A stretch of DNA of 64,000 bases from Rickettsiales bacterium (lineage in GTDB: Bacteria > Pseudomonadota > Alphaproteobacteria > Rickettsiales > UBA6187): positions 14,128 through 78,127 of the forward strand of contig JBEVNR010000057.1 of NCBI GenBank assembly GCA_040507985.1. The letters are read 5' to 3'. A program made the translations under genes and the position numbers. Every line of letters begins with the position of its first letter. Within the stretch, counting starts at the first letter, position 1. Below the pieces are notes generated by a model. It saw only the letters and a program-made list of their open reading frames with translations. It was not told the origin of the DNA and did no database searches. Shown here in pieces: positions 8,492-46,532 of this stretch.

Positions 8492-11400
8492 TTACAACCC
8501 GTATTTTCCTCGTAAATACCCCATAATGGCCGCCTCGCTCTGGCCTTTAACGTGATTCTCGAAAATAATTGCTTCCGCGACGTCGTGGCTTGCCGTCGAG
8601 GCGTTGCCGCCGATATGCATGCCGAACGTCGTGTTCAGCGGCGGGAAAGAGGATAATCCCTTTGTCACCGATTGATTGACCGTCGACGACGCCGAACGTC
8701 GCACGAGCGTCGTCATGCCCATAAAGCGAGACGACGCGCTCACATAGGCATGGGTGACGACGGGCAACCCGACGGAGTCGGAAAGATTCATCCGTACCGC
8801 CGATTCGCCCGTTATGTCAAGCGACGCGTGGCCGTAACGGTAGCCTACGCCTCCCGGAAGCGAAGGATTGGCGTAGCTTTCGGCGTAATTCTGTTCGTCA
8901 AGATAGAGCGACCAATAGCTTCCGCCGTAAGGAAGCGACAGGCCGATATTGCGCGCCGGGTCGCCGAAGGCGATCAGGTTGTTCGGCGCACGCGTATTCT
9001 CCGTCGTCACCACGAACACGCTCAGCTCGCTTGCACTTGCGCCGAAGGGATCGGGAACGTCTAAACTCCGCGCCTTGCCGCTTTCGTAGGCGAAACGCAG
9101 CGCCGGCAACCCGCCGATCCCCGACCCTGCATAGGCGGGCCGCAAGGTCGGATCCGCTTGCGTCGCGTCGTTGCCCTTGCCGGATTTGTCGCGCCATATG
9201 GCGGGGCGAACGGACTGGTCGTAGCGCAGCGAGCCTTGGCAATAGGGATCGGAGGCGTCGAGCCATAATTTTACCTCCGGCAAACCGCTTATGCCGCCGG
9301 GAGACGAGGAGGACAGGCATTCGCTCGTTTCGGGGTTGCGCACGATCGTAATTCCCCATTTCACGCCAAGATAATCCTCCATCGCCGTCATTTGCGCCAG
9401 CGTCACGTTTTGGTCGCCGTAGGCCAATATTTCGCCGACGGCGCCGCTCCAGGTCGCGTACCCTGCAAGCGCTCCGGCGGCGCCCACCGCGTTCGATCCG
9501 TTCGCCTGCCCGCTGCGCGCGGGCGGGGAGTCGGCCATCCGTGTTATGCCGTTGGTGCGTATGCGGCGCATATTCCCGTCGTAATACGCCGAAACGACAA
9601 AGGGTTGGCTCGTCGAAAACCCGAGGGCGCCGGCGGAGTAGGAACCTTTCCAGCTATTTTCGATCAGCGTCGCGCTGCGCATCGCGATGAAATTGCCGGC
9701 CATGTCGACGTCGGTGCGCCCTAAATTGAGCAGCCCCTGCGCCCGCGCCGTCTCCGCCGTCGCCACGGCGAACAAGGCGTAGCGTCCGGCGCCGTTAAAG
9801 GCCGCGACGTTCGGCAATCCCATGTAATCGTTCGCTCCGTCGAACACCATCGCGGACTTGCCGGAGAGATACGACTTGACGTATAGCGGACGGTAATTCG
9901 CCGTCGATTGCACCGCGTCGTTGCCGTTCCGCGACTTATCGCGCCATATGCCGGCCGCTTCGGCGTCGGAATAATTGGCGAGCGTTCCCAAACATAGCGG
10001 GTCGTCTGCGTCCAGCCACACCGCCGGCGTTTGGGTCACGCCCGAAACGGAGGGCGACGCAGCCGACATACATGGCGCCGTCGTCATGTCGTAGGCGGCA
10101 ATCGCGTATTTCGTGCGCAAATAGCTTTCGAGCGACGCAATTTGCGTGCCGGTTAGGCTCGTGCCGGCATAGGCCAGGACTTCGCCGATTTTTCCGTCCC
10201 AATTGGAATATCCGTCCACGCCGCCAACGGAGAAACGTCCGCCCGCCTGGCCGTTGCGCGTTCCGACGCTTTCTTCCGCCAATTTTGCGCCGTTCACCCG
10301 CACCGATCGATTGAATCCGTCATAGGTCGCGCTAATAATAAAGGGAGAGGTGGGCGCAACGCTCACCGGCGCGTTGGTGCCGTCGGACCACCAGCTATTG
10401 CGCCATTCGTAGCCGGACGTTCCGCTCGCCAGCGCCAGCACGTTCGATTTGCCGGATTGCTGCGCGTGGTGGAAGGCGAGCAAGCCTTGCGCCCTCGTCA
10501 CGTCGGCTTGCGCCGCCATGAACACGGCGTACACGTTCGCCCCTTCGAGCGCCGTCATCTCCGGAAGATCGAGCGCGTCGTCCGTGCCGTCGAAATTCAT
10601 CGCGCCCTTACCGTTCGTCCAGCTTGCGACGTAGAGAGGGCGAGGAGAGGCGGAATCCCATTGCGCGGCGTCGTTGCCCTGGCCGGACTTGTCGCGCCAT
10701 ATGGTCACGGCGGCCCCATCGGCGTAGGCGGGAGAGGCCCCGCACAGCGTGTCCGATCCGTCCAGCCATAGTTTAAGCCCGGTCGTCACCCCCGTACCGC
10801 CCGGATTAGAGGAAGACGTGCATGCGCCTTGCGCGGGGGGCACGACGAACGCTCCCCATTTTTGGCCTAAATAATTTTCCACGGACTTAGATTGCGTCGC
10901 GTTCAGCGCCCCTTTATAAAGTAAGACTTCTCCGACGTCGTTTTGCCCCCAGTAATTGTTCCGCACGTGGGAAATATAATACACGTCGGGCGCGATCGTG
11001 GAGTTATTGGCGAACGGATCCTGCGCGATAAGGTTTTTATTGCGATAGACTTGCGCCTTTCCTGCGGCGAGTTGCAGGCGCCACACCGCCATGCCGGCGG
11101 CGAGCGCGCCCGACATGTTCACGTCGCCGTTATCCATGGCGACGGAGAACGTGCCGTCGGTCTGGCCGACAAGGAAGGACAGCCCGGCCGGTTCTTGCGC
11201 GACATAGCTATAGCTCGACGCTTTTTTGTCGAACGCGAATATCGCGTCGCTATCGGAGGCGCTATCGTAATTGCGCGAGGCAAGGAAGATCGTAGCCTCC
11301 CTTCCCGTCAGCGAGAACGCCATGTTGCCGCTCATCGCGTCGTCGACGCCATCGAACCGTATGACGGGCAATCCGTTCTCCATGTTCTTTTTGTAGGTGG

Positions 11401-29400: not shown

Positions 29401-32400
29401 CCGAAGAGACGGAAGCTCCGCCTTGCTTATCTAAGGAAAACACGTAGGCATTGTCTTTGGCTCTATCGACGACCGCCGTCGCCACCATAAGCGTCATGTC
29501 GCGCGAGGCGAAGCCGAACGCTCCTTTGCCTTGCATGCGCTTATTGCCGTCGAAGCGCATGACGGGCAGGGCATTTTGCGCGTTAGCGGTGAAAAGAGGC
29601 GCCGTCGCCGTTAGAGGAGAGCTAGCATATCGGTCGTATCCGGATTTATCCAGCCATAACGTAGCCGATTCGCCGTTCGCATAGGCGCTCGCGTCGCCGC
29701 ACATCGGATCGCCCGCGTCAAGCCATAATTGCAATCCCGCCTTATAAGGAAGCGCGTCGTCTTCGCTGACGCATACGGCGGCGGCCAATCCCCACTTCGC
29801 CGACAAGGCGCGTTCGGCGCCGCGCCTTTCGTCTGCCGACATGGTGCGGCCATAGAGAACGATTTCGCCGATGCGTCCGGAAAAGGGCGCGCTTCCGTCC
29901 GATTTCGCGCCGATGCGCAAACCTTTATTGAGCGTGACGGCGGAAAGATTATACGGCGTCGTCGCCATGTCGCCCGAGGCGTTTATTCCCAGTTGCAGCG
30001 TGTCGGCCGTGTTGTTCCACACAAAACTATACAGCGCCGTTTTTCCGGCCGTATCTTCTTTCGACGCGGCGCCGGTCGTGACGCCAAACGCGACGTTCTG
30101 CTTAAATAGTGACAGGCCTAACGCGCCTTCTCCTTCCGCAAAGCTTGCCGACAGCATAGTTTGCGCGCTTTCGCCGACCGACGGAGCGGCAACGATAAAA
30201 CCGGTAAGATTCGATACGTTCAAGAATTTATCGGCGCCGACGTCAAAAAAATCGCCCGCTTGCAACTCGGCCATCGGTAATCCGTTCTGCGCCTTGCTTT
30301 GCCAACGTATGGCGTTGTTGGCGCCGGCATGTATCATATTCGTCGTCTTATCTTTCCATGTGCCGACGGAAGAAGCCGTCGTCAGCGTGCCCTTGCAATC
30401 GGCGTCGGCGGCGTCGAGCCATAATATCCTGTTAACGGTAGGTAACGACATGTCGTTATAAGAACAGGTGCGATCAATGGGAATTCCCCATTTCGTCGCC
30501 AGATAATCTTCGACGAATTGCCGTTCGTTTTCGGCAATCACGGCGGAATAGACAATCACGTCGCCGATATTGCCCTTAAAGTAGCGCTCGTTGCTGAGTC
30601 CGTTCGCGGAATCGGGCGAGGCGCCGATCATAATGCGTCGTACCGACGCGATATTTGCCGGGCTTTGGTCGCCGTACACCCGCTGATTGCCGTCAACATA
30701 GAGTTTTATTTCGGAATTTTTCGCCGTCAGGTTATATATCCGCATCGCGTCGGTGGTATAGGCGCCGAGCGTGCGGGCGCTTCCCGAAACGTCGTAGCGC
30801 AGCAAATGCGACGTGGCGACGCCGAATTCCAGACTTTGGACGGGAAGCGGATTGGGCGCCTGCGCGCCTTGGCCGTATAGACGCAGCATCGTGCCGGGCG
30901 TCGCCGTTTCTTCGGCGGTTTTCGCGGTGACGAATAACGTTAGCAACGACGAATCCGCCACTTTCAGGTCGACGGAACCCACGGCGCCGGCGCGATGCCC
31001 CGCCACGTCGTCGACGCCGTCGAAGCTAATGGCGCCAAGGGCGCCCGACGTCGCCATTTTCGCCCCGCCGCGCACCGGCAGGCTTGCGCCAGAGCCGGAT
31101 TTATCGTTCCATACCGACACGCTCGCACCGTTTACCGCCGCCTCGCCGGTGCAGTACGGGTCTTTCGCGTCCAGCCATAATTTAAGTCCGGCGGGATAGG
31201 GGAAGGGAATATTGCCCGCGCACGTCGTCGCCGTTTTTTTAATATGCCATTTATTCGCCAGATAGGTCGAGACGGTCGTCAGGTCCGTGTCGCTCAGCGC
31301 GTCGGAATAGAGAATCGCTTCGCCCAGCTGAATGGTATTGTAGGCGTTGTCGTATCGTCCAAGGAAATAGGCGCCCGGGGTGACGGTAGCGCCGACATAG
31401 CCGACGTCGCCCAGTTTTTTCGTGCCGTCGACAAACAGCTCGGCTTCCGTCGCCTTTAAGCGAAGTGCGTATGCCGCCACGCGGTCGGGCGCGTCGAGAG
31501 AGTTTACGCGATTTTTGGCCAGAAACGAAAAGTTTTTATTCGCGGCCGGGTCTATCGCCACGTTAATCCCCGTCGTTTCCGCGTACCCTCCCCATAGACC
31601 GGTCGCCGGCGCGGCTTTGGTTAAGATAAACACGCCGGCGCCGTCTTTGGTGAGATCAAGCAGATCGGCCACGACGAATATCGTCGCCTTGCCGCCCGTT
31701 AGAGTGACGTTATACGTGCCTGAGAGATAATCGTCCACGCCGTCAAATACGAGCGCCGCCTTGCCGTTTAGCGTGTTAAGCGTGCGCGTCGGGGCGTTGG
31801 CGGGAAGAGGAGCGGTTGCGGCGCGGCCTTTGCCGCTTTTGTCGTTCCATTGCGCAAGCGGCGCCGTCGGGGAGGAAGATTCCGCGCAGGCCGACGTCGG
31901 GTCGGTCGCGTCGAGCCATAATTCCATTTTTGCGGAGGGAATGCCGACATTGTCCGCACAAAATCCGGAAATTCCCCATTTCTTGCCGAGATACGATTCG
32001 ATTCGCCCGCGATCCGTGTCGGAAAGCGGCACGTTATACGCCAATATTTCCCCGATATAGCCTTTATAGGCGTTGCCGTTCGTGGGAACGGCGCCGACGC
32101 TGAACTGGTTGGATTCCATCCATCCCGTGGGCGCCGCCGCGTTGGTTGCCGTCAGATTTCCCGAATTATATAACGACACGGTAGCGCCGGAGCGTTTGGC
32201 CGCAACCAAATACGGAGCGCCGGCCGGCGTTGCCGCACTCAACTCTACCGCCGCCGGCGCGTTATATATGCCGAACCGAAGGGCGCCTCCTCCGAAAGCG
32301 AACGTAAAATCGCGGCCGGACGCTATGTCCATGCTAATCAACCCGCCGTTATCGGTAGAGGCGGGACCGCCGGACGCGCTTCCCGCATCGGGATATATAA

Positions 32401-41400: not shown

Positions 41401-44400
41401 AGGTGGGATCGGTCGCGTCGAGCCACACGGCGAGATTGTCGGTCGGCACGAGGGGAGAGTTGCTTGCGGTGTAACAGGTGTGGCCGCCGCCCGATCCGTC
41501 GCCGTTTAACGCCACGTTCCACTTGCTCGCCAGCTTGTCTTGAATGCCGTTAATGGAGTTAGCGGATAAAAAGGAATTATAGAGAATGATCTCAAAAATG
41601 TTGCCTTCATATTGCTTGGGACCAATCCCGCCGCCTATCCATAGGGGCACGCTTTGGCGGTCCGGCGCGTCGGCGCCCGTGCTGACGGGTGTGCCTCCGT
41701 CTACGGACAAATAGAGTTTTTTCGCGTCGCCCCCGTCGTAATAGAGCGCGGCGACGTGAACCCGATTGTCGGAGACGGCTTTTTTCACGATTTTATCCGA
41801 TCCGCTAGATTCCTCCGTAAAGCCGGCGAACACCTCCGGTCCGGTTTTGATGGTGAGTCCGATATTGCCGGCCTGATCGGCGAAAATGGGAGCGTTGCCG
41901 GAGATATAGGCGGCGCCGGCGTTGGCCTGTGCTATTTTAAAGACGCTGAGCGCGGTAAACCCGGCCGAGCCGAACAGGTTTTGCGACGTGGCCCCCGCCA
42001 CCGTGTAATAGTCGTTTCCGCCGAAATCCGCGCCGATATGACCATAATATTTCACCATTTTGGCCGCGTGCGCGCTTGTCGTCGTCGCGCTCCGCCCGTT
42101 TGCGCTGCGATCCTTCCAGCACAATACCTTATCGCCTTCCGTCGCCGCCGTCGCGCAGTCGGCGGACGAGGAAAGCGAACCGGATTGGCTCGCGTCGAGC
42201 CACAATTGCAATCCCGCGCACTCGCCGTTCGGGCACGGCTCTTCGTCGAGCGGCGTCACGTCCCACCGCTCGGCGAAATATTGTTGCAGCGTGGTTTGCT
42301 CGTTGATCGTGAGCACCCGGTCGTAGACGGCGACTTCCGCGATATCGCCCGCCCAATAGGGGCTTGCGGGATTGCCTTCGGTAAAACCGCCGAGCGCGAA
42401 GGGTTTCGAGCTGGCGTACGGCGCGCTATTGTCGTCGCCCTCCCCGACCGGCATGCCGTTTAAATAGGTTTCAAAGTCGCCGCTGACGCTGCCGCCGAAC
42501 GACGCCTCAAACACGTACATTTGCCCTGCCTTGACGGCGCCGAACCCTTGAACGTTCCAGTTTTGCGCTCCCCCGCGCGCATAGGCCGCCCCCGGAGTGA
42601 ACGCGGCGCCGAGCGTCGAGTTCCAGCTTAGCTGGATGTTTGAGCCTTTGGAAAGCGGGCCGGCGCAACATAGCGCCGCGTTGGGCGAAGCCGTTCCCGC
42701 CGCCACCACGTAATAATGCCAGTCGTCTTGGTTGGGAACAGTCGCGTTTTGCAATATGTTCGCCGTGCCGTTAAATCGCACCACGGCATTGTTGCCGGCT
42801 TTCGCAACGGAAGGCGAGGCGGCGGCGGAAGGCGACGACAAATGCCGCGCGTTCACGCTTTTATCTTTCCACAGATCCGCCCCCTGCCCCAGCTTCATGC
42901 CGGCGGCGAGCGCGGTTTTTCCGTCTCCGGTAATGTCTTTGGCGTCGTACCACACCACCAACCCGTCGGAGATGCCGGCCGGTCCTTGGTCTTTTTCCAC
43001 CGCGACGGAAATGCCCCAGCGGTTACCCATGTCGGCTTCAATTTTTAAGCGTTCGTCGTCGCTGACGAAACGGTTATACAGCGCGATCTCCCCGATATGG
43101 CCGTTATAGTAATCGCTTTTGAGCGTCGAATTTCCCCACGTGCCCACGTAAATCGGCACGTCTTCGTTGACCGCCACGAGCGACACATTATTCACCGCCT
43201 GCCGCTTGCCGCTTAAAAACACGTGCGGCGCGGTGCCGTTCCACGAGACGGAATAAATAAGCGGTTTGCCGTTCGTGTCGGGGTGCGCGTAATTATTGAC
43301 GGTCGTCGTAAAGCGCAAGCCCAGCGGAGAAGCGGCGTTGGCCGTCGAATCCATAAATAAGCGGAACGGCGCGGCGGTCGCGGCTGCGGCGCGTCCTTTA
43401 GCCAGCAGTGTGCCGTTGCTTCCGGCCGCCGGCTTAGCCACGACGAACACGCTGTAACGTCCGCCCTTGGTGGCTTTCAGGCTAAGCCCGTCTATCGTCG
43501 TCGCGTCGGCGTTAAAGCGAAAATAATCGTGAACGCCGTCGAAATACACGGCCTCCCTGCCGTTGATCGCGCCCGTATCAGCTTCCGGCGCGCCGAACCC
43601 GTAAAGCGGATTACCCTTGTTACTCGCGTCGCGCCAATAGCCGACATTGTCGCCGTCGCCGGCTTCGGTGGTGATATTTTCGTCGGTGAATAACGGTTTA
43701 TATTGCGTGTCCACCGCGTTCGACCAGTTGACGATGCCGTCGGTGACGTCGCCGGGGCCGCGCAATCCCGCGCCTTTGCAAAGCGACGCCAGATCCGTCG
43801 CCGCTTCGCTGTCGGCCTTCGTCCAATTGCCGTCGTCGCAACGCAAATGGATTTTACTTTGCGGGTCGCTGCCCGCATATTGGTAGCCGGTTTTGCATTC
43901 GGCCTTCACCTCATAGGCCACGCCGTCGCCGGCCTCGAACGGGCCGCCATAGATAGTCATGTTCCACGGTTTGTTTTCCAATTCGGCGCGGGAGCAGGTT
44001 TTGCGGACGCACGATCCGTTTTCCGGCCACACCCATTCGCCGTCTTTGCCGCATACCGCCGTGGGCGTCGATCCGGCCGGGGTGAAATGTTTCTCGCAGC
44101 CCGACGCTTCGTGAGACGATCCGTCCGCCTCCGCGTTCGGCCATATGATATGGTTGAGCGTGACGGTTTTGCAGATAGATTTCGAACAGTTTTTCTCGCT
44201 TACCTTCCATACGGGTTTGTCTACGTCGTCGAGCGCGCACACTTCATACATGACGCCGTCTTTCGCGCCCGGGCAATTTTCGGTCACGATGGCGCGCATT
44301 TCGCCTAGCGCGTACTCACCGCACGACACGGGCTTGCAGGTGTCGCGCTTCACCGTCCAATAGGGAGAGACGTTTCCGTTATCGACGCAAAGCAGCGTCG

Positions 44401-45814
44401 CCTGCCCCTCTTCGCCGGGAGGACAATCGCGCGTGACGGTTTGGCCGCCGGTGCAAGACGCGCCGCCGTAATCCAACCGGCAACTATTCGCCACCGGCAC
44501 CACCACGTCGTCGCCGCCGCCGGTGCACATATAGGTGACGCGTCCGCTATAGCCGCTCGGGCAATTATTCCTCTCGGTCGTCTCCCATATTTTTAACCCG
44601 CCGTTGCAGGTAACGGGAGAACATTTATTAACGCTCGCGCCCACCCAATACCATTGCGAGGCGGAGACATCCGTGCAGGTTTGCGAGACGTATCCCTCTT
44701 CGCCCCAGCGGCACGCGCGGTAGCGTAGTTTCGGATCGCCCGCCGGATCGGGCACGCAGCGATACACGGCGCCGGCGGCGGAACCGTCGACGATTTTGCA
44801 ATCGGTGTCGAAATCGTCCAATCCGTCCGGATCGGGCTTGTTCGCCCACACGCCGTAGTCGGAACAATATTGCGCGTTATAGGCGCCGACGAAATCGTTT
44901 ATGCATTCTAAACTGCGTTCGTCGCCCGGCGCCTTGCCGCCGTAGCACGTGGCTTGCTCGCAGGCTTTGTGGGTTTCTTGCCACATCAATTCGCCGTTAT
45001 CGTCTTGCTTGCAGGTTTCGTACACGGCGCCGCGATAGCCGGCGGGGCACCCTTTGGTTTCGTCCGACACCTCGCGCACCGCTCCCAGCTCGGAGCAGCG
45101 GCCGGAATATTCCGATCCCTCGCCGCCCATGGCCGACGCGCCTTCCGCGGACAAGAATGCCAGCACGCAATTCGGCTTGTCGTCGGACGCGTTATACGCA
45201 TTGCCCGACGCCAGGCATTTCCCCCCGCCCGACCCGTCGAAGGCCCGCACGCGCCCGGTCTTGGGCAAACCGTCGTCCATGCGTTCGTCCATGAGCTTGG
45301 CGTCTTCCGGGGAAATTATCCCGACGCCGTCGTCATTTGAGGTAAACCCCGCGAAGGCGAAGCCGAACGCCTCCTTCGGCGCGTTCGCTATATTATAAAG
45401 TACGCGGAACCCGCTGCCTGCGATGCTGCCGGCCGGCACGCCCTTGCCGGGAACGTAACGGCTCGTGCCGTCCGCGTCTTCTTCGATGAGTCCGGCGGCG
45501 CGCAAATGCAACCAGAATTGCAGCGCCTCGCCTTCGGTATCGATGGCGCCGTTGCCGTTGCCCGGCGTAAGCGTGGCGCCTTTGGGCGCGGAAAAAGGCG
45601 GAGAGGAGGCGTTGAACGCCATGTCGCCGGGAAGCGCGTTGTAAATGCTGCGGAAATCCTGCGCGGCCTTGGTGTATTTCGCCGCTTGCTTCACGATCGA
45701 GCCGCGGCGCGACTTATCGACGAGCGACATGCCGCCGGCGACCATGACGCTCAGCGCCGCCACCGCCCCCAGCACGGCCGCCATCTCGATTAAGCTAAAG
45801 CCCGTCCGCCGCAT
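8492..45814 (-). CDS. Giant modular pilin-like protein (12,440 aa): prepilin-type signal and pilin domain, 8 four-Cys CCP/Sushi-like modules, about 47 tandem LamG/ConA-like modules
   Basis: A single open frame of 12,440 codons runs from ATG 45814 to TAA 8492-8494. All other frames across the span are fragmented. N-terminus MRRTGFSLIEMAAVLGAVAALSVMVAGG. Periodic conserved motifs recur throughout (see the sub-features). Confidence 0.9.
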   Translation of the reverse strand: MRRTGFSLIEMAAVLGAVAALSVMVAGGMSLVDKSRRGSIVKQAAKYTKAAQDFRSIYNALPGDMAFNASSPPFSAPKGATLTPGNGNGAIDTEGEALQFWLHLRAAGLIEEDADGTSRYVPGKGVPAGSIAGSGFRVLYNIANAPKEAFGFAFAGFTSNDDGVGIISPEDAKLMDERMDDGLPKTGRVRAFDGSGGGKCLASGNAYNASDDKPNCVLAFLSAEGASAMGGEGSEYSGRCSELGAVREVSDETKGCPAGYRGAVYETCKQDDNGELMWQETHKACEQATCYGGKAPGDERSLECINDFVGAYNAQYCSDYGVWANKPDPDGLDDFDTDCKIVDGSAAGAVYRCVPDPAGDPKLRYRACRWGEEGYVSQTCTDVSASQWYWVGASVNKCSPVTCNGGLKIWETTERNNCPSGYSGRVTYMCTGGGDDVVVPVANSCRLDYGGASCTGGQTVTRDCPPGEEGQATLLCVDNGNVSPYWTVKRDTCKPVSCGEYALGEMRAIVTENCPGAKDGVMYEVCALDDVDKPVWKVSEKNCSKSICKTVTLNHIIWPNAEADGSSHEASGCEKHFTPAGSTPTAVCGKDGEWVWPENGSCVRKTCSRAELENKPWNMTIYGGPFEAGDGVAYEVKAECKTGYQYAGSDPQSKIHLRCDDGNWTKADSEAATDLASLCKGAGLRGPGDVTDGIVNWSNAVDTQYKPLFTDENITTEAGDGDNVGYWRDASNKGNPLYGFGAPEADTGAINGREAVYFDGVHDYFRFNADATTIDGLSLKATKGGRYSVFVVAKPAAGSNGTLLAKGRAAAATAAPFRLFMDSTANAASPLGLRFTTTVNNYAHPDTNGKPLIYSVSWNGTAPHVFLSGKRQAVNNVSLVAVNEDVPIYVGTWGNSTLKSDYYNGHIGEIALYNRFVSDDERLKIEADMGNRWGISVAVEKDQGPAGISDGLVVWYDAKDITGDGKTALAAGMKLGQGADLWKDKSVNARHLSSPSAAASPSVAKAGNNAVVRFNGTANILQNATVPNQDDWHYYVVAAGTASPNAALCCAGPLSKGSNIQLSWNSTLGAAFTPGAAYARGGAQNWNVQGFGAVKAGQMYVFEASFGGSVSGDFETYLNGMPVGEGDDNSAPYASSKPFALGGFTEGNPASPYWAGDIAEVAVYDRVLTINEQTTLQQYFAERWDVTPLDEEPCPNGECAGLQLWLDASQSGSLSSSADCATAATEGDKVLCWKDRSANGRSATTTSAHAAKMVKYYGHIGADFGGNDYYTVAGATSQNLFGSAGFTALSVFKIAQANAGAAYISGNAPIFADQAGNIGLTIKTGPEVFAGFTEESSGSDKIVKKAVSDNRVHVAALYYDGGDAKKLYLSVDGGTPVSTGADAPDRQSVPLWIGGGIGPKQYEGNIFEIILYNSFLSANSINGIQDKLASKWNVALNGDGSGGGHTCYTASNSPLVPTDNLAVWLDATDPTCDGKTAYNDGAKLASNLGWKNKGRYAMTLKGTDETAPTYVASAVNTKPAMRFSGQGQYLAGANLSGVPMAAAFVVMTPAATVTPFSAAAQVLDPNYGALGSGLALGNAVSGMSREVASYSDAAGAGYHSAYTGRAAEMAVEPMLLSLKYDAGYKIYRNGVRVDNATDGAAVMGAIGEFYLGGSAQKSNFFSGDIAETLIFSVAPDAAQTAAINTYLATKWGIAVSNDSCVSDGSVPISGLALWLDASDPGCNGQAGYMADGASVTAASPWRDRSGNGRHAGQATASAQPKYDAHAVGGISPAVTFDGNDSLEILAFNALAAKDGYSVVMAAKIASDAADSLISLRDASAPTKIGMLLDTQTGRASFHHHSPLTAGTAGADLAQSQVGGFSYGNFAVYSASRSVASNYQTMRVNGGYVGKKAPIAKPALPAASVATDLLIGRSPAGTASLSGAIAELLVYDRELSSASLASLERQLSGKWGIALDNGCAASGNVDKTGLALWLDAADPACDGVTAWPDGAKVGTGGYLWRDKSGAATVYNGYSYDAGAPSYALASPLNALPAVSFSGNEYIMTDYRPGSPFTAFVVARTPATYANHYGLFGAVDSATDGVSGLFSPSGDLVLQAGDANATGKNLATETNQNGVFRLVMDGSKATASWNGVEGASATYHPAAKTDDYMVIGASSSSGVPVKNYKGMIGEILFYDRALSVTDVAAVERYLSTKWKLVVRSACVEDGAAKPTDMALWLDASDPNCDGATTPANGGAITLWRDKSANVFMATDADAACDPPSYIYGAAGGKAVVRFDGSNDCLTLGKYYPYINTGDGGMTAFVVLRSATTTQKPALDFGARYSGGWGLDFAPSSLRFYAVEASGSGQTASELGLEQNAFAVLSYAVTFGDSQKLSVSGADPIVAKAAPTALDAAKISEAPARATAGAGPFTVGALSGALTAGQYFKGDVAEIRLYKRAFAANERRDVEMDLANKWGAALNRPCAIDKTLNHDKLELWLDALDPACDGATRWPSQSETGVGAYEWRDKSDDRNRLTQSASNRRPTYVTAKINRKPAVYFDGGDGLYGKSNVIPGDATAYSIFTVIAPDASKAQTGQLFGHYAENSGQTAHQFGMNADFTLFYDETTPAGGALVSAGKVRATPDAHIAEFTRNGSARAIYIDGATDRSDNAAEQYAGAKPQRLAIGYDPSNGGFAKGFAGYMAETIVYSRALDDAARRAVETYLADKWGVFVGCADDSAAPSAGLALWLDAADPSCTGKITIANNDKIGIWRDKSGNKNHASATDAAAPVFSYVAGVGLLKFDGVDDRMTTRSAVNVRTAFIVHNTAPGATSVLLDFRAGAANALWGRGGDGTAAVYADNRGAFWVTTPRTDGLDGLPSFRGDALDISTLTAAGAMGTGIANIGAANDGSLPTRSDVAEILVYETALADSAKKSMETYLAKKWKTTLQSACTNKAASVASGLKLWLDAKDAHCDDGKTAPTDGSGLRVWRDKSGSGNVAYQVVASQRPTYKKTATTLGNGSAIGFNNNYLRIKRSGLGISNAFTLMAVISRDNSGSIVGGGDNGFRWHTESNSATCAGASATNNRQWLLVNDGAGTPAFTRHCDTQDVGLQTPSILTTTFDGATRQAIFYVNGKAGATVTGSETSVQSPSDDALIGAGQHNANYYNGAVGEIMAYNRVLTPTELRSVWASAGEKWNVPVACVADVSLTVRPASVKLWLDAKDPACSGAGWTESHPVGMAGYVWRDKSASAFTASALATASMPVYNPKGLNALPSVKFDGTDDRLTLGANYLTSASGGVTLAVALAPSAARQSASNDRLAFAFGYEGAGQVWGLGASGGSGYLLSPTASGGKEDYFPLPASKGEGAFVVARINFGVTQSVHVGGTQMMQDGITLPKLTLAEIAEAAAPGATAGPVAIGGPSSSGGAASRYFAGDVQEIIAYDVALSDAEIAALTAYETAKWNLPTYGACRSDASAPQNGLALWLDASDVDCQGGALSGGANIGSAKNMWRDKSGHTPGAVNGDGARPTLSSTVTQNNKKLVTLDGTDDFLEFTDLYDLTDKTLLMAAKFTVGGNKQGLFARRSSASSGNETILLPGAPASLFLFTAAGGSDTTLDIAAPAADMGFFGVYAVTVTADRAVSVYRNGGAHASGALAGPLRVERFGIGYDPGPYYLNAALGEMLIYDHALDSTERGAAETYLSLKWKVALSCVSDQTLTYKNGISLWLDAADPLCDGATRYKNGDVVPAWMDKSGNNRHAYAVTAPKYATGVANNMPAVTFSSASLQSLEIATAFAPRDIFLVGSQNARDSAGAFMGGRTDANFRLWERTKTERLQLLATASVAAPADGMHIYRVSQAAGGALSAYADGESFGVQTPSQALLNDSFYIGQRKGAGADAYLDGYIAEIIAYAAPAVDADAANVGAYLSKKWGASYQPAPTCKPDAALAYQTGLNLWLDGADPDCDGTAGLSSASSVKSWIWRDKSAAKSFAVQYRRPAYKADARNGKGAFVFSASGSHFAAPSLPVTGGDMFVVASFANSGESGTLLSTGDEYFFYKQSDARLYGKANGSTAYVAPPSDVDYHVYRLKTGTPSKIFVDGAQQAQTGAGFNAQSGNLWRIGAQKDAYYADAAIAEILSYGAPLADVDAATVQTYLSGKWFTGGACASDSSLAPAGLVLWLDANDPLCSGNAKAYPNNASVPLWKDKSGQAHDAAPQFGKGKPTLAWNAGYNGRSMMYFDAANNSALQTANILRNDFTAFIAFKPLAASASGVYPNQNGGLLSADAASGLRFNVSYGGQKLYFGVNDVFISSVFGVETTRMATLRRQGAILQLFAEGLQKQWVGNAASGALNAADGMSIGSVRTANASYQGHIGEIVAYDSALANDKRNAVESYLAKKWNVDAPDFGACTSDSNPGGITGMSGLQLWLDAADPQCKGATKKYADNEKTWFWYDKSGAARHMGAVAENTRPVYKKSGINGREAFYFDHSHMTAPKGLDADFTLFAIIYPDAGSASGGPASTDNGGLISMDIASGRDFTFAFGGGALRFGIYNAPAAVELSAATPAGAPYLVAAKRSGATVSLYNSGNLTATNAAAPTGWMESNQFSVGAVPTNGNAYKGYIGEILAYNVPLSDTDRGRIESYLGKKWGISGFCADNVGIPSAKMELWLDATDPTSACAESSSPTAPLAQWNDKSGKGRAATAPLPANAPTRTLNTLNGKAALVFDGVDDYLSGTYNVTLTGGKATIFVVADLLDLTKDGAGVFILTKAAPATGLWGGYAETTGINVAIDPAANKNFSFLAKNRVNSLDAPDRVAAYALRLKATEAELFVDGTKKLGDVGYVGATVTPGAYFLGRYDNAYNTIQLGEAILYSDALSDTDLTTVSTYLANKWHIKKTATTCAGNIPFPYPAGLKLWLDAKDPYCTGEAAVNGASVSVWNDKSGSGASLPVRGGAKMATSGALGAISFDGVDDVAGHRAGAVGSVDLKVADSSLLTLFVTAKTAEETATPGTMLRLYGQGAQAPNPLPVQSLEFGVATSHLLRYDVSGSARTLGAYTTDAMRIYNLTAKNSEIKLYVDGNQRVYGDQSPANIASVRRIMIGASPDSANGLSNERYFKGNIGDVIVYSAVIAENERQFVEDYLATKWGIPIDRTCSYNDMSLPTVNRILWLDAADADCKGTLTTASSVGTWKDKTTNMIHAGANNAIRWQSKAQNGLPMAELQAGDFFDVGADKFLNVSNLTGFIVAAPSVGESAQTMLSASFAEGEGALGLSLFKQNVAFGVTTGAASKEDTAGKTALYSFVWNNTADTLQLGINASGDMATTPYNLSAVTLNKGLRIGAKSDGSAPFSGRIGEIVLYGRTMSADERRGAERALSAKWGLAAAVCVSEDDALPYKAGLQLWLDAGDPMCGDASAYANGESATLWLDKSGYDRYASSPLTATAPLFTANAQNALPVMRFDGNKRMQGKGAFGFASRDMTLMVATAVVDRAKDNAYVFSLDKQGGASVSSEPNFLGLGNAVADNTLRLHGAGYGLDATAATPTDFTIWTARLASNMATLYKNGAQITQDAYAGTAFAPDTYSIAAARDNDWGRVDVGEIVLFDHAVTATERAVNEAYLGHKWGVGVACGPITQPLPYQTGNILWLDAEDPLCIGKENQYGGDTTVAIWRDKSGKGNDAAISASGYRPIYRLNRQNEKPAVDFDGTDDRLRMPDMPELLGNANYYIFAVANADTIRSQSLLNLTSTTNLYGSNVHFMSSATNWRHNWYGNDQNTPVVFTAGETFLYAATWNGTTRTTRFNGVATGSGTPSVAHNGLQNGLNAIGETFSGSGYWDGAVEEVSVYAGTTLTAANVKSVESYLATKWGIAKALRVFNACASSFSSGPGGVSGGLALWLDAADPFCQGTGAQYASGEAVRLWRDKSSKGYDATQPLNGSWPVYAPTPGIHALPVLDFDGTNGYLSLPDMPELLGNNSYAIFAVAQPDALRRQALLSIGTPSINNVFIENTLNDAAGAWRHGWGGTGAYIDVATQENTIATTAPFLYGAVWNNASGKLSVRFEGKKITEIAPSPHNGQQSGINSVGRALHTTGERWDGKIGEIVVYGNTNLSDVNIATVENYLAVKWGISAQSVCTSSADPGNTGKTAGLRLWLDANDPYCLGEATRYADGGAVSLWRDKSRSSHHAYQSTALLMPVYRQSGMNALPAVEFDGADDYVNLPVISALNGNNAYNIFLVVKTDVVATKNFIALGEPSNRSYLSLEFSNANLRQAWWGADLDVSAAAAGVSAGVPFLATLTWDGAIRTTRINGAVKAQDAPGARNMSNTNVDAIGRMLHTSGYTFDGMMAEMLVYADTSMDAATVPAIEAYLAQKWGIATAAACVPSSGSGVTGGLQLWLDATDPTCYGGKLSDGVELASWKDKSGNNNHAGQTVAAAKPVYKTTSGFGASLPSVVFAGGDYMAAADSVGLSLSQDMTGFIVLSVSNLDRPAYLLSKGADNAYNWRINSLLGTGATGGSGVQRLFFKDAGAASYSYVSPKPNVDKPVMLSVALDMGNAGTGNTASFYENGKLTKTHNFVSTAIKDTNDALWVGAGNPAAGDPNYLKAEVGEILLYNTALTGTQIATVHDYLSKKWKISSDATSACASSSDPGATGVTDGLQLWLDAEDPYCQGKAAQYANGAAVYLWRDRSGKGNNAGQSTAALQPTYATNWRFGKPAMNFDGTDDNLALPDIAALAGNAKYYVFGIGYARAPAAKNGFAMLGASGQANKGNGHWYNGTNQLWNHDWQGTALSPNAASYMGVGAFMFAGAWDGAARTVRMNGRQVASDAPPAHNTLQNGNNRIGVYNDGANRYWNGMIAEVLVYAGSTLTAKNVSAIESYLAGKWDLGGYLCPEIPTNYAPSNDLALWLDAGDMDANCKTDAALYAETDVSAWKDKSGSGYNAVADGTVWAINASAPTPGAKSPPSVGRKVIAGKNVVTFDRANNENLSLLNPVAPANHPLMPNGNNSYTMLAVMQTERYAEQYLLASSEYGVAGATAPNVFSLYRSLTGAVENLWETSVDGAINAYPLMKPYKVARSIPYALSFRYDKNADGRMVRVNGEEIGSAFDTTSRNGNASQYIWIGAGVHRNENGDLLETFNFDGHIAEMLYYRSALSTVDLKEVENYLISKWALLSSCDASTNPPVKIAGANLKMWLDADDVNGDCTPDGNIPNQDVVVWVDKSGKGNHASWGVAPSIDGVKVNNRNAVTFNAASGEYFRMQDKTIPLGNDPYTVAAILTYKALPGTGDRFLMSGGTGGGRFGVGLGDDFTAKIGVGATFTSTDWGSVMPDMAQMLVARYDSGARTIRINRKQEIGASTSTSATGGNNQIGRDGAAASAYFNGSIAEMLVYNAALSSAQYGQIYDLEEYLNKKWNIVSVCSEKSLANVSGLTLWLDADDIDADCVPDDATPAGAADAWQDKSGNNADAWGAAKPNVVKNTVQGNDGSMRNIVSFDGINDYLGIRKSVFPKYNDNYTLFAAFSTNLQDGATQQFIYGQEKGGLNTHGYLLSGVDASLMRHYNTNGTEQRLKTGANLFPQTMRVLTVRGSAATTNMYVDGEERTLVSSSAARAQDAASRMDSIGAARLVSTATACSGECYKGDVAEIILFNRRLGAGVGSDTASIQRYLQEKWGIYRDCALNSIPATKGTGLALWLDGDDLDGDCKSDSVAANGQKLSVWRDKSGHYRHAYHLTDARRPYVEATDVGRETRNGHNAVKFVASEQNWLHIPDETVPVGNSPFTIFAVFREATNTSAQTLVSGGNAASLGSYTALELAHAGVRGDLTLYGFSGGPISMGTDSVSPFMLYAASVVYDPALGRAILFNADAAMLAPDGVKNHAATGIDNRIGAKGGNSSWMDGEAGEVIIYGSPLSQGDVIVVQRYLLEKWGIDQKQNDASPKEGDATGDSDGNDCLADDSIPQTHLTFRISANDLACQGVRHPLADGAAVALWKDRSGWARDVYASDSSRRPTFKRNILNGRPIVRFNGTSNKLGVNVEGRKIFGANGDMTFFALANYASPAHEGKIFTWGDEEGEPAYMGITALSGGGSLFFDVGNATSGNGRLAFVPAGGFADNWHFYTAQRDGANMRLRIDGADVASGGATSVPSFNYYERDLAIGSDGPHYYKGDVAEIILYDAALSDEGIQAVEGQISGNWGVGMSCAHDAALDGLTTPPDMWMDADDPFCAGRTSQYTQGQTAQYWYDKSSARRKLTASGAPAYDKRDHGVRSVIKMAANDFYDGPTLVSDLGGTDSGAAFVVFRKPDATARYISGALNGNGSFYMLGAANGATDMGALNVAAGALPLSVSVAKTTAGTNAGYHIATAFLHAPNNRAGLRVDGVTERLGAANFSSYDFANAAFRIGGASGATNGAGSVLYVGEAILTAKPVSADDIETVESYLATKWGIARPQDVACSPGAGPAASVTGANAPALWLDANDVYCNGASSYGDGQRVSLWRDKSGKNYHARQKTDGFAPIYAVSDGFNRRGVVFDGTDDRLSVPAVTELAGNAPYSIFAVARLDDVSAARGMLALPDSSTNNHANAHLFDGATHNWANSWKGNDLLVPQQTFMVHAFPMALQQETFLYEASWDGTTRKIYKNGLWRAADAPAQSRASSASDAFMLGSAGGVYWRGAVHEVIAYNRAYNDADARALNLALAKKWNIVEAIKILADCVPDSIPGMESRAADMALWLDGKDVYCTGDKFALPGGGAGTIINPFLIWRDKSGKGYDVYPQPGSIKNNVFSSNKIPYVSNVEPGATFEQAALWHHGGAFGAGGELSFYMAIAPIAYDGAVAAEKKGFATFLSADNASIFSLTAKTANAGAWTLAHTGDTSLQSSAALETLGALGVYGGYISSSKHEMGFASYQEGAIKAGGDRGGRMKWTGAGAGVSNLSNVMLGYGGGTWNVKEFVAYNAATTAEEEATVVTYLRDKYDIPGPARTCASSSNPMIVGVDATPALWLDAADPLCQNNALYEDGAVPYRWADKSKNNYHADIVYGAPIFKKNIQNALPVMRFDGVDDGLTGYASWRFPDKKMTIVVALAAGDAAGHSDAVFTLDDRASTASPFSDPSLIYFGRGGTSDQNVGLLSNNQDINVSSAADVSFGVWRAEIDGAQAFVAKNGVVTSRDASYLADLISPNAYYVGHVRGGQNFGRADVGEILLYDSALSPTQAWAAEKYLAQKWGVASPINAACSSSTLPGGATLSRAPALWYDAEDPLCQGTGTKYTDGEKIFLWRDKSGHNAALSQTDVAVMPEYRTNYMNALPAIRFTSDAMKRADTFGGGLADMYIFAALRENVAADNKFISFDGAPSAAEAGLYLQAAGSTNPMWKWVTSGAPTLSMPAGTTSVGGISIVRAYYSSSNLKAKIVVNGTKAAETTKTSGNLSTKGGAYVGYGSSDQDIGELIVYDGAITSSDAQTLETYLATKWGTSSSLGACAPYVAPAGVASVPTFWLDASDPLCSGVAAQYSESAAVGLWRDKSGKANDAAQSQASKKPVYAGQGLATGKPAMRFDGTDDYLTLPDMAAFTGNSSYAFFVVAQPEVIAQQTLLGVGKSAVGVNSFTSHEMSPANNAWKYNWGAGGATIDISKFSVSTPFIYAARWDAARTLQTLRLNGATEYEATAPAFAGEQNGGNQIGHFTPSPGSYWNGKIAEIIAYGNATLSDANMTSVENYLAAKWGLGAYGACSGAGNPGGTNVTSGLTFWLDAADPLCTGTGQPYADGAAVALWKDKSGKANNATQTTAAYKPAYRKTAVNSLSAIDFDGTDDVLAMADMSEFSGNNAYALFFVAQPDVLKQQMLFVIGKSGTNDAYEGTAMVDSSGTWIDAWWGSNDRSVTQSVSKIAANAPFIYSAVWNPLTSVRKFRFNGMLAMETNSGTHALQYGEANGFGKVRSNYGGWDGKIAEAIGYGNATLGDADVIKVERYLAAKWGISVPLACTSGSNPGNTGVTAGLALWLDAADSYCMGSGTQYANNASVGLWRDKSGKESNGVQFVDAYKPKYIQTGLNGLPTMDFDGTDDYIGFPNLPELLGNNSYAIFMVAQTDALRRQSIISIGTPNITNAYIENTISSASGDWRNSWWGGDLDVSQADSALAANKAFIYGALWDNVNALRVLRFDGVTRAEASFSAHAGQQSGINSIGRALQTSGEKWDGKISEAIVYGNVVLSDPDVVKIGRYLADKWAISAFPAVCTSSADPKITGATNLLSLWLDASDPLCRGSASQYANGAAISLWRDKSGNGRDARQSTASYKPTNVSGWRNGLSSVYFTTNANRMNVPAVKSLGGNANYYVFALTEVNAIAGYQQKLLDFGKWTNRSSNSHFLNSSNQWAHDWFGTTQNTSTASIAANQPFIYLATWNGTTRDTRFNGVVRNQDTPGARNQYFDGFGYIGQRAGADQSWIGHIGEIMVYGGTTLTEANINAVTAYLANKWGISIDASAYPCTSSPNPGATGVTTGLKLWYDAADVYCQGGYTPYANAGAVNLWRDKSGNASNATQNTAANKPTYDTSDASLPALIKFDGTDDYLSVPSMPSMTGNAPYAAFMVMSASSLGAASGTVVSLSDTTSAQYMSQSLTPINSWNQSWGGGQQLTRVTPSVNQLFLVSSVWNGSELLVKKNGETKKWLSPSAPNFSPGTRNMIGAMPDPGNASAILYPWKGAIAEALAYVGTTQTHAERIALEKYLMNKWKITIPKEGAACASSSDPGGAGATAGLKLWLDAEDPYCQKAASRYASGASVALWRDKSGNGNDAVQDNPAAWPTYDVTNLPGARAGMNFDGSSDDVILRNFSSLVGNAPYAVFGVAATDDVSKASQHLISIMQNNAQLLTSGNIWKQDWSGAPSNQTVAAGVTQGQLFLVSALWDGSARKLKINGALKGQDAPGAPSFTQNGSNRIGGNAAGSNYWDGIEAELLVYGGSVPNDTQITALENYLMTKWGITSGGGAGGGNPGNLGVTSGLQLWLDANDPKAQGAANQYADAERVSVWRDKSGYVRDAVTTYDAPVYKKNTQNGLPVMYFNGADAGSAMAVQAPISLPQREMTLFFAMAPKDLQSDWRALFTLDNTNSAYSNVYQDPNAFVFGVSDVDGQLFTERDNYDMVGLVAADVNFSVWSMRAQAGALKMFRSGVKVAEDAYVNASAVTSNVVTIGYERDGSMAKADFGEIILYNRALSDGEMRSVEQYLGNKWGTAAYVACASNAGPGGSGVTSGLKLWLDANDPYCQGSSAQYANGSTVNTWRDKSGRGYDAVLDGGTPSYVTNAQNGLPVVRFDGVDDAMSGFGALTFTNREATIFIAADNKDSVTDWDGIFATDRSAPSTATLALQPAGLNFAVYSTDGKAQLLMDQGDINALADIPTGLAVWRLALKSGVASLYRNGALAGQDNFANTSTVTPDKYYVSHVRGANFGRNDFAEILLYEGALSAANVNVLESYLQAKWFAKDNRTAACASTADPGATGVVAGLTVWLDANDPYCQGASVQYADGAAVDLWRDKSGNVYNATLKNGSPTYKKNMENGLPVIRFDGVDDAMSGNMAFSLTGREATIFLASRNYDSASDSDAIFAFDKKASSYSYVAQEPAGLSFLVGQTDGTFSVAMDNGDVNMSGALAAGMAVWRLQLAAGKAQVYRNKNLIAQDPFANNSTIAPDVYYISHVRNNYWGQNDVGEVLLYKGALNATQSKSVENYLGQKWGAFVVPPAQGACTSSSNPGGTGVTTGLKLWLDGSDTLCGASPAYADGAAVTIWRDKSGQGNDAAQWDSASPRPLYVASWTNGKGAMNFDGTDDALDLPEMTALEGANVYAVFMAAQADVTRAQGLLAFHHAQQSGKSNVLALASGTSGYEWRNSWWSDGTNAPVSVAPTSPFIISATYDGFNRSVRVNGAKLAEESVGTRNGQAGGRFSVGGVDGYSNWDGKIGEVLAYAGTSLTGTQIASLESYLRTKYAIAAYDMTTAPCMSAASPSVSGVTQTPAVWLDADDPLCLGTLANYSDAEAAGIWRDKSRNGNDAVQSTANYRPLYVKSYLSGKSAMVFDGANDYMGLPNVAAFNGAGRYALFAVATAETARAQGLLNLGRTDVDMAGNFIAMRSATLIENSWKGSYSAGALGFSTSQPFVVSAYYDGNMRRIRTNGITRMADSPPARSGQANGSNAVGAAGALAGYATWSGAVGEILAYGDQNVTLAQMTAMEDYLGVKWGITIVRNPETSECLSSSSPGGISGLPEVKLWLDASDPYCQGSLRYDQSVRPAIWRDKSGKGNDATQADPTLRPAYAGSGIGGLPALRFAYESGKARSLDVPDPFGASASELSVFVVTTENTRAPNNLIAFGDPARNIGLSLPYGGSYWSLYLDEQNYAESYANPSLPGGVGYRYGHASLDITGESAVRMNLSDSVGLPVVTHAYVSASSRFMGMTTLVRRSASSTVNQSVTKGLSSFPPLNTTFGMHIGGNASTASHDVAEAIIFENHVKGQSEAAIMGYLRGKYGL
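8495..43790 (-). repeat. Array of about 47 diverged tandem LamG/ConA-like (Laminin_G_3-type) modules, period 651-858 nt (mean about 750)
   Basis: The Trp codon of the module-initial LW(L/Y/M)DA motif lies, all in frame, at 43724, 42950, 42200, 41423, 40673, 39899, 39173, 38396, 37649, 36998, 36242, 35447, 34724, 34040, 33374, 32633, 31916, 31175, 30419, 29723, 29000, 28253, 27491, 26762, 25970, 25235, 24377, 23663, 22886, 22073 (degenerate, Arg), 21326, 20564, 19796, 18992, 18242, 17519, 16766, 16013, 15257, 14510, 13748, 13022, 12272, 11522, 10766, 10016 and 9263. Each module also has W.DKSG.., ..FDG.. and a terminal ..E..(V/L)Y...L....E.YL..KWG. Confidence 0.85.
43778..45097 (-). repeat. 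Eight tandem four-cysteine modules (CCP/Sushi/SCR-like spacing)
   Basis: Residues 240-679 contain 32 Cys in eight C..C..C..W..C units of about 45-75 aa. Several have GY after Cys2 and Trp before Cys4, e.g. CSRAEL..AECKTGYQYAGS..LRCDDGNWTKA..SLC. Confidence 0.6.
45155..45724 (-). other. Pilin-like globular region ending in a Cys200-X15-Cys216 loop (D-region-like)
   Basis: Residues about 31-220. ..GGGKCLASGNAYNASDDKPNCVLAF.. sits at the C-terminal end of a pilin-sized domain. The Cys200 codon was verified at 45215-45217. Confidence 0.6.
45725..45814 (-). other. Class III (prepilin-type) signal: leader MRRTG, predicted cleavage G|F, Glu+5, hydrophobic alpha1-N helix
   Basis: Residues 1-30 are MRRTG/FSLIEMAAVLGAVAALSVMVAGGMS. 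This matches the G/F(T/S)LIE consensus of type IV pilins and T2SS pseudopilins. Confidence 0.8.
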
Positions 45815-45947
45815 ATATATAACAAGTATGTTTCAACTTTTCTAACGTCAGCGCCCGCGTTTTTTCGCCTTTTAAAGACGCGCGACTCCCCAACCTAAAA
45901 AACAGGGCACCTTCACGTCAGCATAAAGAGGAAAAGATAAGGAAGGG

Positions 45948-46334: not shown

Positions 46335-46532
46335 GTTGACGGCGTCGACATAAAGTTTCTCAATATTGCTCGAGCGTATGCCGGAATTGCTAATTAACGA
46401 TTGACTATCTGCTTATAATAAATTATTATTAATAATAATCCATTCATCCGCTTACAGCCTGCCATATTCGCCGCTCTTCCTCGCTTACGCTCCGAACGTC
46501 TTTCCATTATATCGTCGCGCCGGTTCGCTACG

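Follow-up and report, generated by a model that had tools for sequence, protein, structure and literature searches.

A predicted type IV pilin module at the head of a 12,440-residue protein with an array of lectin-like modules in an uncultured alphaproteobacterium

The grafting of extra modules onto pilins has recently been recognised as a means of equipping type IV filaments with further functions: more than 1,200 such modular pilins have been catalogued, in 264 architectures, with PF13385 among the most commonly grafted modules and a length of 860 residues for the most elaborate one noted (PMC8179133). The ConA-like module of one of them, PilC of Streptococcus sanguinis, binds sialylated glycans and glycosaminoglycans of the heparin type, and has been modelled at the tip of the pilus (PMC9934059). 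With respect to size, proteins of at least 10,000 residues are frequent in several phyla (10.1101/2023.11.21.568195); one corpus of 2026 holds 3,650 of them, the longest with 147,155 residues (10.64898/2026.06.07.730766), and the huge proteins of bacteria are mostly nonribosomal peptide and polyketide synthases (NRPS/PKS) or surface-attachment proteins (PMC11573180). Here we describe a giant gene on the minus strand of a stretch of 64,000 nucleotides (the window) from the contig JBEVNR010000057.1 of a 'Rickettsiales bacterium' (GenBank assembly GCA_040507985.1, positions 14,128 to 78,127), whose product of 12,440 residues begins with a predicted type IV pilin module, continues with a Cys-rich Sushi-like region, and ends with a long array of lectin-like modules of the LamG type.

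Our preferred reading, to which we assign a probability of about 0.6, is that this protein is a hyper-expanded modular type IV pilin, displayed on a filament as a multivalent glycan adhesin. The definition of a modular pilin (sensu Raynaud et al. 2021) fits it, as the pilin module is followed by the Sushi-like modules and by 47 PF13385 modules; the characterised members of this class carry one or two extra modules, and the 55 found here exceed the concept by more than 10-fold. It is the pilin nature of the protein that is unusual, while its size is ordinary by current metagenomic standards: an earlier note, made by a model from the letters of the window, had drawn attention to the length of the frame; proteins of at least 10,000 residues are now frequently met in metagenomes.

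Integrity of the giant gene

The giant open reading frame (ORF) starts at ATG 45814, and the only stop in its translation is the terminal one. An in-frame stop lies 7 codons 5' of this ATG and the intervening codons offer no alternative start; ATG 45814 is therefore the start of the gene. None of the remaining frames over positions 8492-45814 holds an ORF longer than 269 residues in the ORF listing. With stop triplets representing 2.0% of all triplets in the gene, the probability of 12,440 consecutive stop-free codons is of the order of 1e-111. The GC content at third codon positions (GC3) stays between 0.64 and 0.75 throughout, and the relative synonymous codon usage is strongly correlated to that of 13 flanking housekeeping genes (r = 0.966, versus 0.34 and 0.37 for the two off-frames): the uniform GC3 and the matching codon usage therefore identify native coding DNA over the full length of the gene.

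The sensitivity of such a long and repetitive gene to assembly errors was also considered. Tandem Repeats Finder (TRF) reports no tandem repeats in the gene, and the direct repeats that were found measure only 31-96 nt, with 60-87% identity between each copy and the reference; because these repeats are short and divergent, a misassembly by repeat collapse or expansion is unlikely. A contig of 47,261 bp produced by an independent assembler, possibly from the same reads (Logan contig SRR28982155_3303), contains a called gene with an identical product of 12,440 residues, and the 10,919 nt of it that were read are identical to the window. The giant frame is thus confirmed as a native and intact gene, which belongs to the chromosome of an uncultured alphaproteobacterium. 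The earlier note had taken the frame as genuine and as maintained by selection, with only short ORFs in the other frames, and had put the mass of the product at about 1.3 MDa; the single stop, the native codon usage, the concordance of the second assembler, the odds against a stop-free frame and the computed mass of 1.307 MDa all bear it out, while its estimate of more than 10 min for transcription and translation is arithmetically right on the E. coli rates that it assumes.

Architecture and family of the protein

The N-terminus reads MRRTG / FSLIEM, or more fully MRRTG / FSLIEMAAVLGAVAALSVMVAGG, and can be recognised as a class III (prepilin) signal: a basic leader of 5 residues with predicted cleavage after Gly5 is followed by Phe at +1, Glu at +5 and a hydrophobic helix, with Gly at −1, and in a set of 121 homologues F6, L8 and E10 are nearly invariant. 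No other class III motif occurs in any of the six frames of the window. A search with a profile of the pilin module gives 123 stand-alone proteins, 200-370 residues long, which cover about 90% of the 240-residue query; most of them carry PF07963 (N_methyl), their names in the source records are prepilin-type protein or type II secretion system (T2SS) protein, and some originate from metagenome-assembled genomes (MAGs) of Rickettsiales or Alphaproteobacteria. Two of these stand-alone homologues lie near genes for the ATPase (T2SSE) and the platform (T2SSF) of a type IV filament (T4F) machine: P0257 is encoded in a cluster with a tetratricopeptide repeat (TPR) protein, a T2SSE (MshEN) ATPase, T2SSF and another N_methyl protein, and P0193, found in a Rickettsiales MAG, has T2SSE/T2SSF at a distance of 9 kb and a further N_methyl gene as its neighbour. 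Two further ones are orphan genes; a scattered distribution of pilin genes is usual.

The AlphaFold2 (AF2) model of the pilin module, calculated with the alignment of 121 sequences (pLDDT 89.7, pTM 0.83; an earlier run with 8 sequences and a pLDDT of 49 was discarded), has the 'lollipop' shape of pilins, with an alpha-1 helix of 51 residues (residues 8-58), a short helix, and a head formed by a five-stranded beta-sheet. In a Foldseek comparison of this model with the Protein Data Bank (PDB) the first four matches are all to the C. difficile type IV pilin PilA1, as three crystal chains (probability 0.95-1.00, TM(target) 0.57-0.62) and as a fusion to maltose-binding protein (probability 0.89), and no match other than PilA1 rises above a probability of 0.07. 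When the profile of the module is compared with the PDB sequences only chance-level matches are obtained, the kinship to pilins being visible at the level of the fold. Two residues of the head, Cys200 and Cys216, are nearly invariant across the homologues; such a loop with paired Cys, towards the end of the head, is a typical feature in many pilins. Together with the homologues, the predicted fold shows residues 1-227 as a type IV pilin module, homologous to pilins that are placed with T4F genes.

The region that follows contains 32 Cys, which are arranged in 8 groups of 4; in the modules that were inspected a Trp precedes the fourth Cys. The Cys columns of the region are invariant in an alignment of 14 sequences of relatives (alignment A2). 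The similarity to the Sushi family of Pfam (PF00084) is borderline (21.4 bits with a cut-off of 20.7, in 2 stretches only), and the PDB matches to C4b-binding protein are weak (E 0.15); we refer to these modules as Sushi-like rather than Sushi.

The rest of the protein is an array of LamG (Laminin_G_3) modules, each of which runs from the motifs LWLDAxDPxC and WRDKSG at its start to the motif YLxxKWG at its end. With a hidden Markov model (HMM) derived from the modules of the gene itself, hmmsearch recognises 47 copies and leaves a C-terminal tail of 0 residues; a self-BLAST of the array gives 46 matches. In the first two chunks of 5,000 residues the Pfam family PF13385 is found with E-values of 2.4e-72 and 2.6e-69 (9 and 11 stretches individually significant); the final 2,440 residues are missed by PF13385 but matched by the gene's own module HMM. 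As the protein stops exactly at the end of module 47, it has neither a further C-terminal domain nor a sorting signal. The pairwise identity among the modules, as segmented, is 25% on average and 55% at most; 1 column is invariant and 12 are nearly invariant, and these correspond mostly to framework motifs (LWLDAxD, WxDKSG, P, FDG, G, E and KWG, plus the linker Cys). On these points the description in the earlier note, with a pilin-like N-terminus, Cys-rich modules, about 47 lectin-like modules and a missing C-terminal sorting signal, is reproduced in full.

The whole protein has 132 Cys, which occur in ordered pairs. At 44 of the 46 junctions between LamG modules there is one Cys on each side (the linker Cys and the Cys after LWLDAxDP), 21-28 residues apart, while junctions 2 and 42 are devoid of both; a paired loss of this kind is what is predicted if the two Cys form a disulfide, and both columns recur in the alignment of the relatives. 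According to this pattern each LamG module may begin with a loop closed by a disulfide, and the order of the cysteines throughout the protein points to a probable folding in an oxidising, extracytoplasmic compartment. Among the PDB sequences, the profile of the module matches an S-layer-domain protein (4qvs, E 3e-11), an arabinanase accessory domain, the lectin module of S. sanguinis PilC (7oa7, E 2.6e-5), and the lectin domains of pneumococcal and clostridial sialidases; on the basis of the fold only, the LamG modules would be expected to bind sugars.

For 39 of the 47 modules the closest relative is inside the giant protein itself, and the array is therefore likely to have grown mostly by internal duplication in this lineage. 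A tighter subfamily can be recognised, which consists of modules 20-23, 25, 32, 34 and 36-46, with best matches of 36-54% identity (modules 22 and 38, for example, are 54% identical); module 24 pairs weakly with module 10. For modules 36-46 the best match within the giant (39-54% identity, 152-276 bits) is clearly stronger than the best match to any other family member (69-101 bits). At the levels of identity just described, these duplications would be old enough to have allowed extensive divergence.

The LamG module, taken in full from LWLDA to KWG, is of a very widespread type: in an exhaustive search with the module profile the threshold of E ≤ 1e-3 is passed by 247,103 representative proteins and that of E ≤ 1e-30 by 12,479. 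Among the best 150 of these matches lengths reach 7,023 residues, with no more than 15 near-full-length modules in each, and at least 14 share with the giant the N-terminal 600-700 residues (phmmer E 1e-45 to 1e-98), at 29-36% identity and with all the cysteines aligned. These 14 relatives have 4-13 LamG modules and 1,605-3,863 residues, and most of them terminate at the KWG motif; the number of modules in the giant is 3.6 times that of the next largest relative among those found. Relatives on genome contigs were obtained with a trimmed alignment (A3), the unaligned 720-residue N-terminus giving none as a query: they belong to three MAGs, two labelled 'Rickettsiaceae bacterium' and one 'Alphaproteobacteria bacterium', with ORFs of 3,418 residues, 2,223 residues, and one interrupted by the contig end. 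The metagenome relatives with a complete ORF have about 500 to 1,618 residues, and two more are interrupted by contig ends.

The protein of 12,440 residues is recorded in the gene index and is missing from both protein search libraries, which were therefore searched without the giant itself; other very long members may likewise be missing from them and, because the giant is absent there, negatives from these libraries are unreliable for very long proteins. The window sequence, similarly, is not among the GTDB species representatives that were scanned. A word-index search with the 720-residue query found no family members, and with the module profile it found only proteins of less than 500 residues. 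An orphan N-terminus was considered on this account and rejected, as the exhaustive profile search and phmmer gave 14 clear homologues that the word index had missed.

The architecture, as judged from these alignments, defines an uncharacterised family of which the giant is the extreme member, and we favour the view that the giant array expanded within a family that usually carries 4-13 modules. The earlier note had set the architecture apart from the usual classes of giant bacterial proteins; it is no orphan, since at least 14 representatives share it, and the design of a lectin-bearing modular pilin had already been described. Of the match that the note would have counted against itself, to an already characterised family of the same architecture, one half is seen: the same architecture does exist, in a family that is not a characterised one.

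Some observations on the wider distribution of these parts can be added. Two long proteins, P0079 (6,910 residues) and P0086 (7,018 residues), have 24 matches each to the LamG module profile, and start with MNRGQTTLEFLMILGVALL... and ...RFRGQSSTEFLILFAAAVAIF..., which resemble class III signals of the archaeal type; the combination of a pilin signal with many LamG modules may have arisen more than once. Elsewhere the LamG module sits behind varied N-termini, some of them ordinary signal peptides followed by '...SPGGVS..', and many proteins of 1,400-2,000 residues begin directly with a LamG module. With regard to the bacteria in question, the contigs of the two genomic relatives labelled as Rickettsiaceae (L002 and L003) encode HisA/HisF-type proteins of histidine biosynthesis, a glutamate-cysteine ligase family 2 protein, Dcd, and an enzyme of the EPSP-synthase family for which Pfam does not separate MurA from AroA. 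These biosynthesis genes and the GC content of the window (55-60%) are atypical for classical Rickettsiaceae, and for this reason the NCBI taxonomic labels are probably loose.

Display of the protein and competing explanations

If the protein is indeed a modular pilin, its hydrophobic class III N-terminus would enter the inner membrane and the ~12,200 residues behind it would be translocated, the cysteine pairs closing as disulfides on the oxidising side of the membrane. A prepilin peptidase would cut after Gly5, and a type IV filament machine (T2SSE ATPase, T2SSF platform) would incorporate the pilin module, most likely at the tip of the filament, since its body has no room for so bulky an appendage, as has been argued for PilB and PilC (PMC8179133, PMC9934059). 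The Sushi-like and LamG modules could then extend as a flexible, beads-on-a-string fibre of ~0.2 micrometres, a rough estimate from typical domain sizes, and act as a multivalent and probably multi-specific glycan adhesin for the surface of a host, a prey or a substrate. Processing, display and ligand are all inferred here. A bolder version, which we regard as doubtful, would place the 1.3-MDa pilin at the tip of a retractable filament, with the 47 lectins as a 'fishing line' of ~0.2 micrometres that catches host or prey glycans and is reeled in by the motor: if it were true, an uncultured Rickettsiales-like bacterium would have a new way to reach and hold its partner, and type IV filament machines and secretins would accept a subunit ~80 times larger than a normal pilin.

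Several results weigh against a filament-displayed adhesin. The class III signal remains below the cut-offs of the dedicated models (15.2 bits with a cut-off of 16.3 for TIGR02532 of NCBIfam, 11 bits with a cut-off of 21.2 for N_methyl of Pfam), and the absolute similarity of the pilin module to solved pilins is weak (E 1e-3, TM(query) 0.37). Within the 64-kb window there are no genes for a prepilin peptidase (Peptidase_A24), an ATPase, a platform or a secretin; no pilus genes adjoin the giant gene or its multi-module relatives, and the latter lie in unrelated housekeeping contexts. The gene has no evident Shine-Dalgarno sequence before the ATG, and neither a sigma-70-like promoter on the minus strand of the upstream region nor an intrinsic terminator was found. 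The LamG modules could be mere spacers. Finally, neither assembly nor passage through a secretin is known for any pilin of comparable size; the most elaborate multi-domain pilin noted in a survey of 2021 has 860 residues (PMC8179133).

These points can be interpreted in the light of other explanations. According to one of them the class III signal serves for export or anchoring only and the protein never enters a filament, whether the N-terminal helix, cleaved or not, acts as a tether, or a T2SS-like machine extrudes a surface fibre or coat. The absence of filament genes beside the giant gene and its multi-module relatives would be consistent with this, the size of the protein seems hard to square with filament incorporation and secretin passage, and there are precedents: archaeal sugar-binding proteins use class III signals and the assembly system, yet are not pili (PMC3047682), and the giants of Omnitrophota are flanked by systems similar to T2SS and type IV pili (T4P) and by small class III genes, and are themselves no pilins (10.1101/2023.11.21.568195). 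This explanation is challenged by the observation that conservation goes beyond the signal to the entire pilin head of 227 residues, that this head is homologous to stand-alone pilins located in T2SSE/T2SSF operons, and that a mere anchor needs neither the Glu at +5, nor the head fold, nor the Cys200/Cys216 pair; we consider it possible but on the whole unlikely. A more improbable alternative concerns the array, which may be structural (a stalk, spacer, coat or matrix fibre) and have lost ligand binding, with function residing in a few modules or in the Sushi-like region. Its appeal is that the modules are only ~25% identical, that the conserved positions belong mostly to the framework motifs, and that ligand-site residues could not be assigned; but among solved structures the nearest relatives of the module are domains that bind carbohydrates, multivalent lectin arrays commonly serve avidity, and a pure spacer does not need a lectin fold of 250 residues repeated 47 times.

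The two remaining explanations can be considered essentially excluded. An assembly artefact, or a decaying relic that is not expressed, could be suspected from the MAG source, from the possibility that the Logan contig was built from the same reads, and from the failure to find a promoter, a ribosome-binding site or a terminator; this is very hard to reconcile with the stop-free chance of ~1e-111, the native codon usage and uniform GC3, with repeats too short and dissimilar for mis-joining and the concordance of two assemblers, or with the fold motifs being kept in all 47 modules and the Cys pair in 44 of 46 junctions. Least probable of all is that the protein belongs to one of the classical giant classes (RTX/Bap adhesins of type I secretion systems (T1SS), type V secretion systems (T5SS), Rhs/YD toxins or NRPS/PKS), which it resembles in size and repetitiveness only. 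Over the 12,440 residues Pfam recognises Laminin_G_3, with weak overlapping Sialidase and Laminin_G_2 matches and one chance-level match to ATP13, all of them below the cut-offs, and no RTX, cadherin, Big, condensation, adenylation, KS or YD-repeat families, in agreement with the opinion of the earlier note that the protein is not of the RTX/Bap, NRPS/PKS or Rhs type. The C-terminus is a LamG module without a tail, no T1SS genes are present in the window, and the one ABC protein listed in Table 1 consists of two ABC ATPase domains and ABC_tran_CTD, as is typical of the soluble ABC-F proteins.

The coordinates of the features are collected in Table 1. The giant gene is flanked by genes for PyrH, Frr, an inositol monophosphatase, L33, MscS, DnaA, the ABC-F protein, PlsX, FabH, MiaB and MurB, whose proteins are in GenBank as MET0156283-MET0156300. 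A conserved neighbourhood was considered and rejected: the 297-residue neighbour in the window is unrelated to the 289-residue neighbour at locus L003, and the contexts differ among the relatives. Both of the immediately flanking products are hydrophobic, with apparently several transmembrane segments, and match no Pfam or NCBIfam family. The window contains no Rfam RNA families. The Sel1 repeats of an ORF near its end (Pfam E 1e-36) are of a kind often seen in host-associated bacteria. The minimum of the cumulative GC skew is found at ~51-52 kb, beside dnaA, the skew being negative leftward and positive rightward; the window shows no enrichment in DnaA boxes (10 matches with 6.6 expected). 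If the origin of replication were located there, the giant gene would start ~6 kb away from it and be transcribed away from it, co-oriented with the fork, an arrangement that would suit a gene needing many minutes to be transcribed.

Table 1. Positions of the giant gene, its parts and its surroundings in the window, with the named members of the family.
Feature	Position	Strand	Description or basis
Whole gene	8492..45814	−	12,440 codons and TAA stop at 8492-8494; product 1.307 MDa, pI 5.1
Class III (prepilin) signal, residues 1-28	45731..45814	−	Read from sequence
Predicted type IV pilin module, residues 1-227	45134..45814	−	Homologues, AF2, Foldseek
Eight Sushi/CCP-like modules, residues 228-715	43670..45133	−	Cys spacing, Pfam Sushi
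47 LamG (Laminin_G_3) modules of 217-286 residues, residues 716-12440	8495..43669	−	Pfam, self-BLAST, own HMM
LamG modules 20-25	25259..29746	−	Modules 20-23 and 25 in the younger paralogous subfamily
LamG modules 36-46	9287..17542	−	Younger paralogous block; best matches within the giant
Upstream intergenic region	45815..46532		718 nt, locally AT-rich, GC 0.47
Flanking gene	7424-8317	+	297 residues (289 in the Logan contig)
Flanking gene	46533-47147	+	204 residues
dnaA	49735-51183	−
Intergenic region next to dnaA	51184-51816
ABC protein	51817-53652
ORF with Sel1 repeats	62370-63704	+	444 residues
Named family members			P0037, P0039, P0129, P0159; loci L002-L004, L010

Comparison with known systems

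The closest characterised analogue is S. sanguinis PilC (PDB 7OA7/7OA8). In both proteins a class III signal and a pilin module are joined, via a small beta-module that is Ig-like in PilC and Sushi-like in the giant, to a lectin of the ConA/LamG type. PilC has a mass of 52.8 kDa and one lectin module, and belongs to a monoderm; the giant has a mass of 1,307 kDa (~25 times larger), with 47 lectin and 8 Sushi-like modules and, unlike PilC, would also have to cross an outer membrane, as its alphaproteobacterial host is presumably a diderm. There is no detectable sequence kinship between the two pilin heads, and the location at the tip and the binding of glycans, which have experimental support in PilC, are extended to the giant by analogy. 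With the family of pilin, Cys-rich and LamG proteins described above the giant shares the order of the parts, the type of module and the KWG ending, and differs from it in the number of modules (47 versus 4-13). This family, unstudied so far, is found in uncultured Alphaproteobacteria labelled as Rickettsiales or Rickettsiaceae, a group in which the means of contact with hosts are of interest from the evolutionary point of view. The giant itself raises the questions of how 12,000 residues are translocated by Sec behind a pilin signal, of whether a platform and a secretin can accept such a subunit, and of whether 47 lectins provide multi-specific adhesion.

The giant adhesins of T1SS (RTX adhesins such as SiiE, LapA and MpIBP) are likewise very long and extracellular, consist of tandem beta-sandwich modules and, as would the giant pilin, probably hold an adhesive region away from the cell. 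Their C-terminus carries an RTX/T1SS signal and their N-terminus a retention module, and T1SS genes lie next to them; none of these features is seen here: in the giant the targeting information is N-terminal and of the pilin type. The Omnitrophota giants also reach at least 10,000 residues; the bacteria that encode them are uncultured and possibly associated with a host or a prey, and the proteins have a link to machinery similar to T2SS and T4P (10.1101/2023.11.21.568195; 10.64898/2026.06.07.730766). Their sequences contain numerous transmembrane helices together with a mixture of enzymatic domains, and the pilin-like genes stand apart from them as small neighbouring genes, whereas the giant pilin has a single N-terminal helix and a nearly homogeneous lectin array, with the pilin module fused to it.

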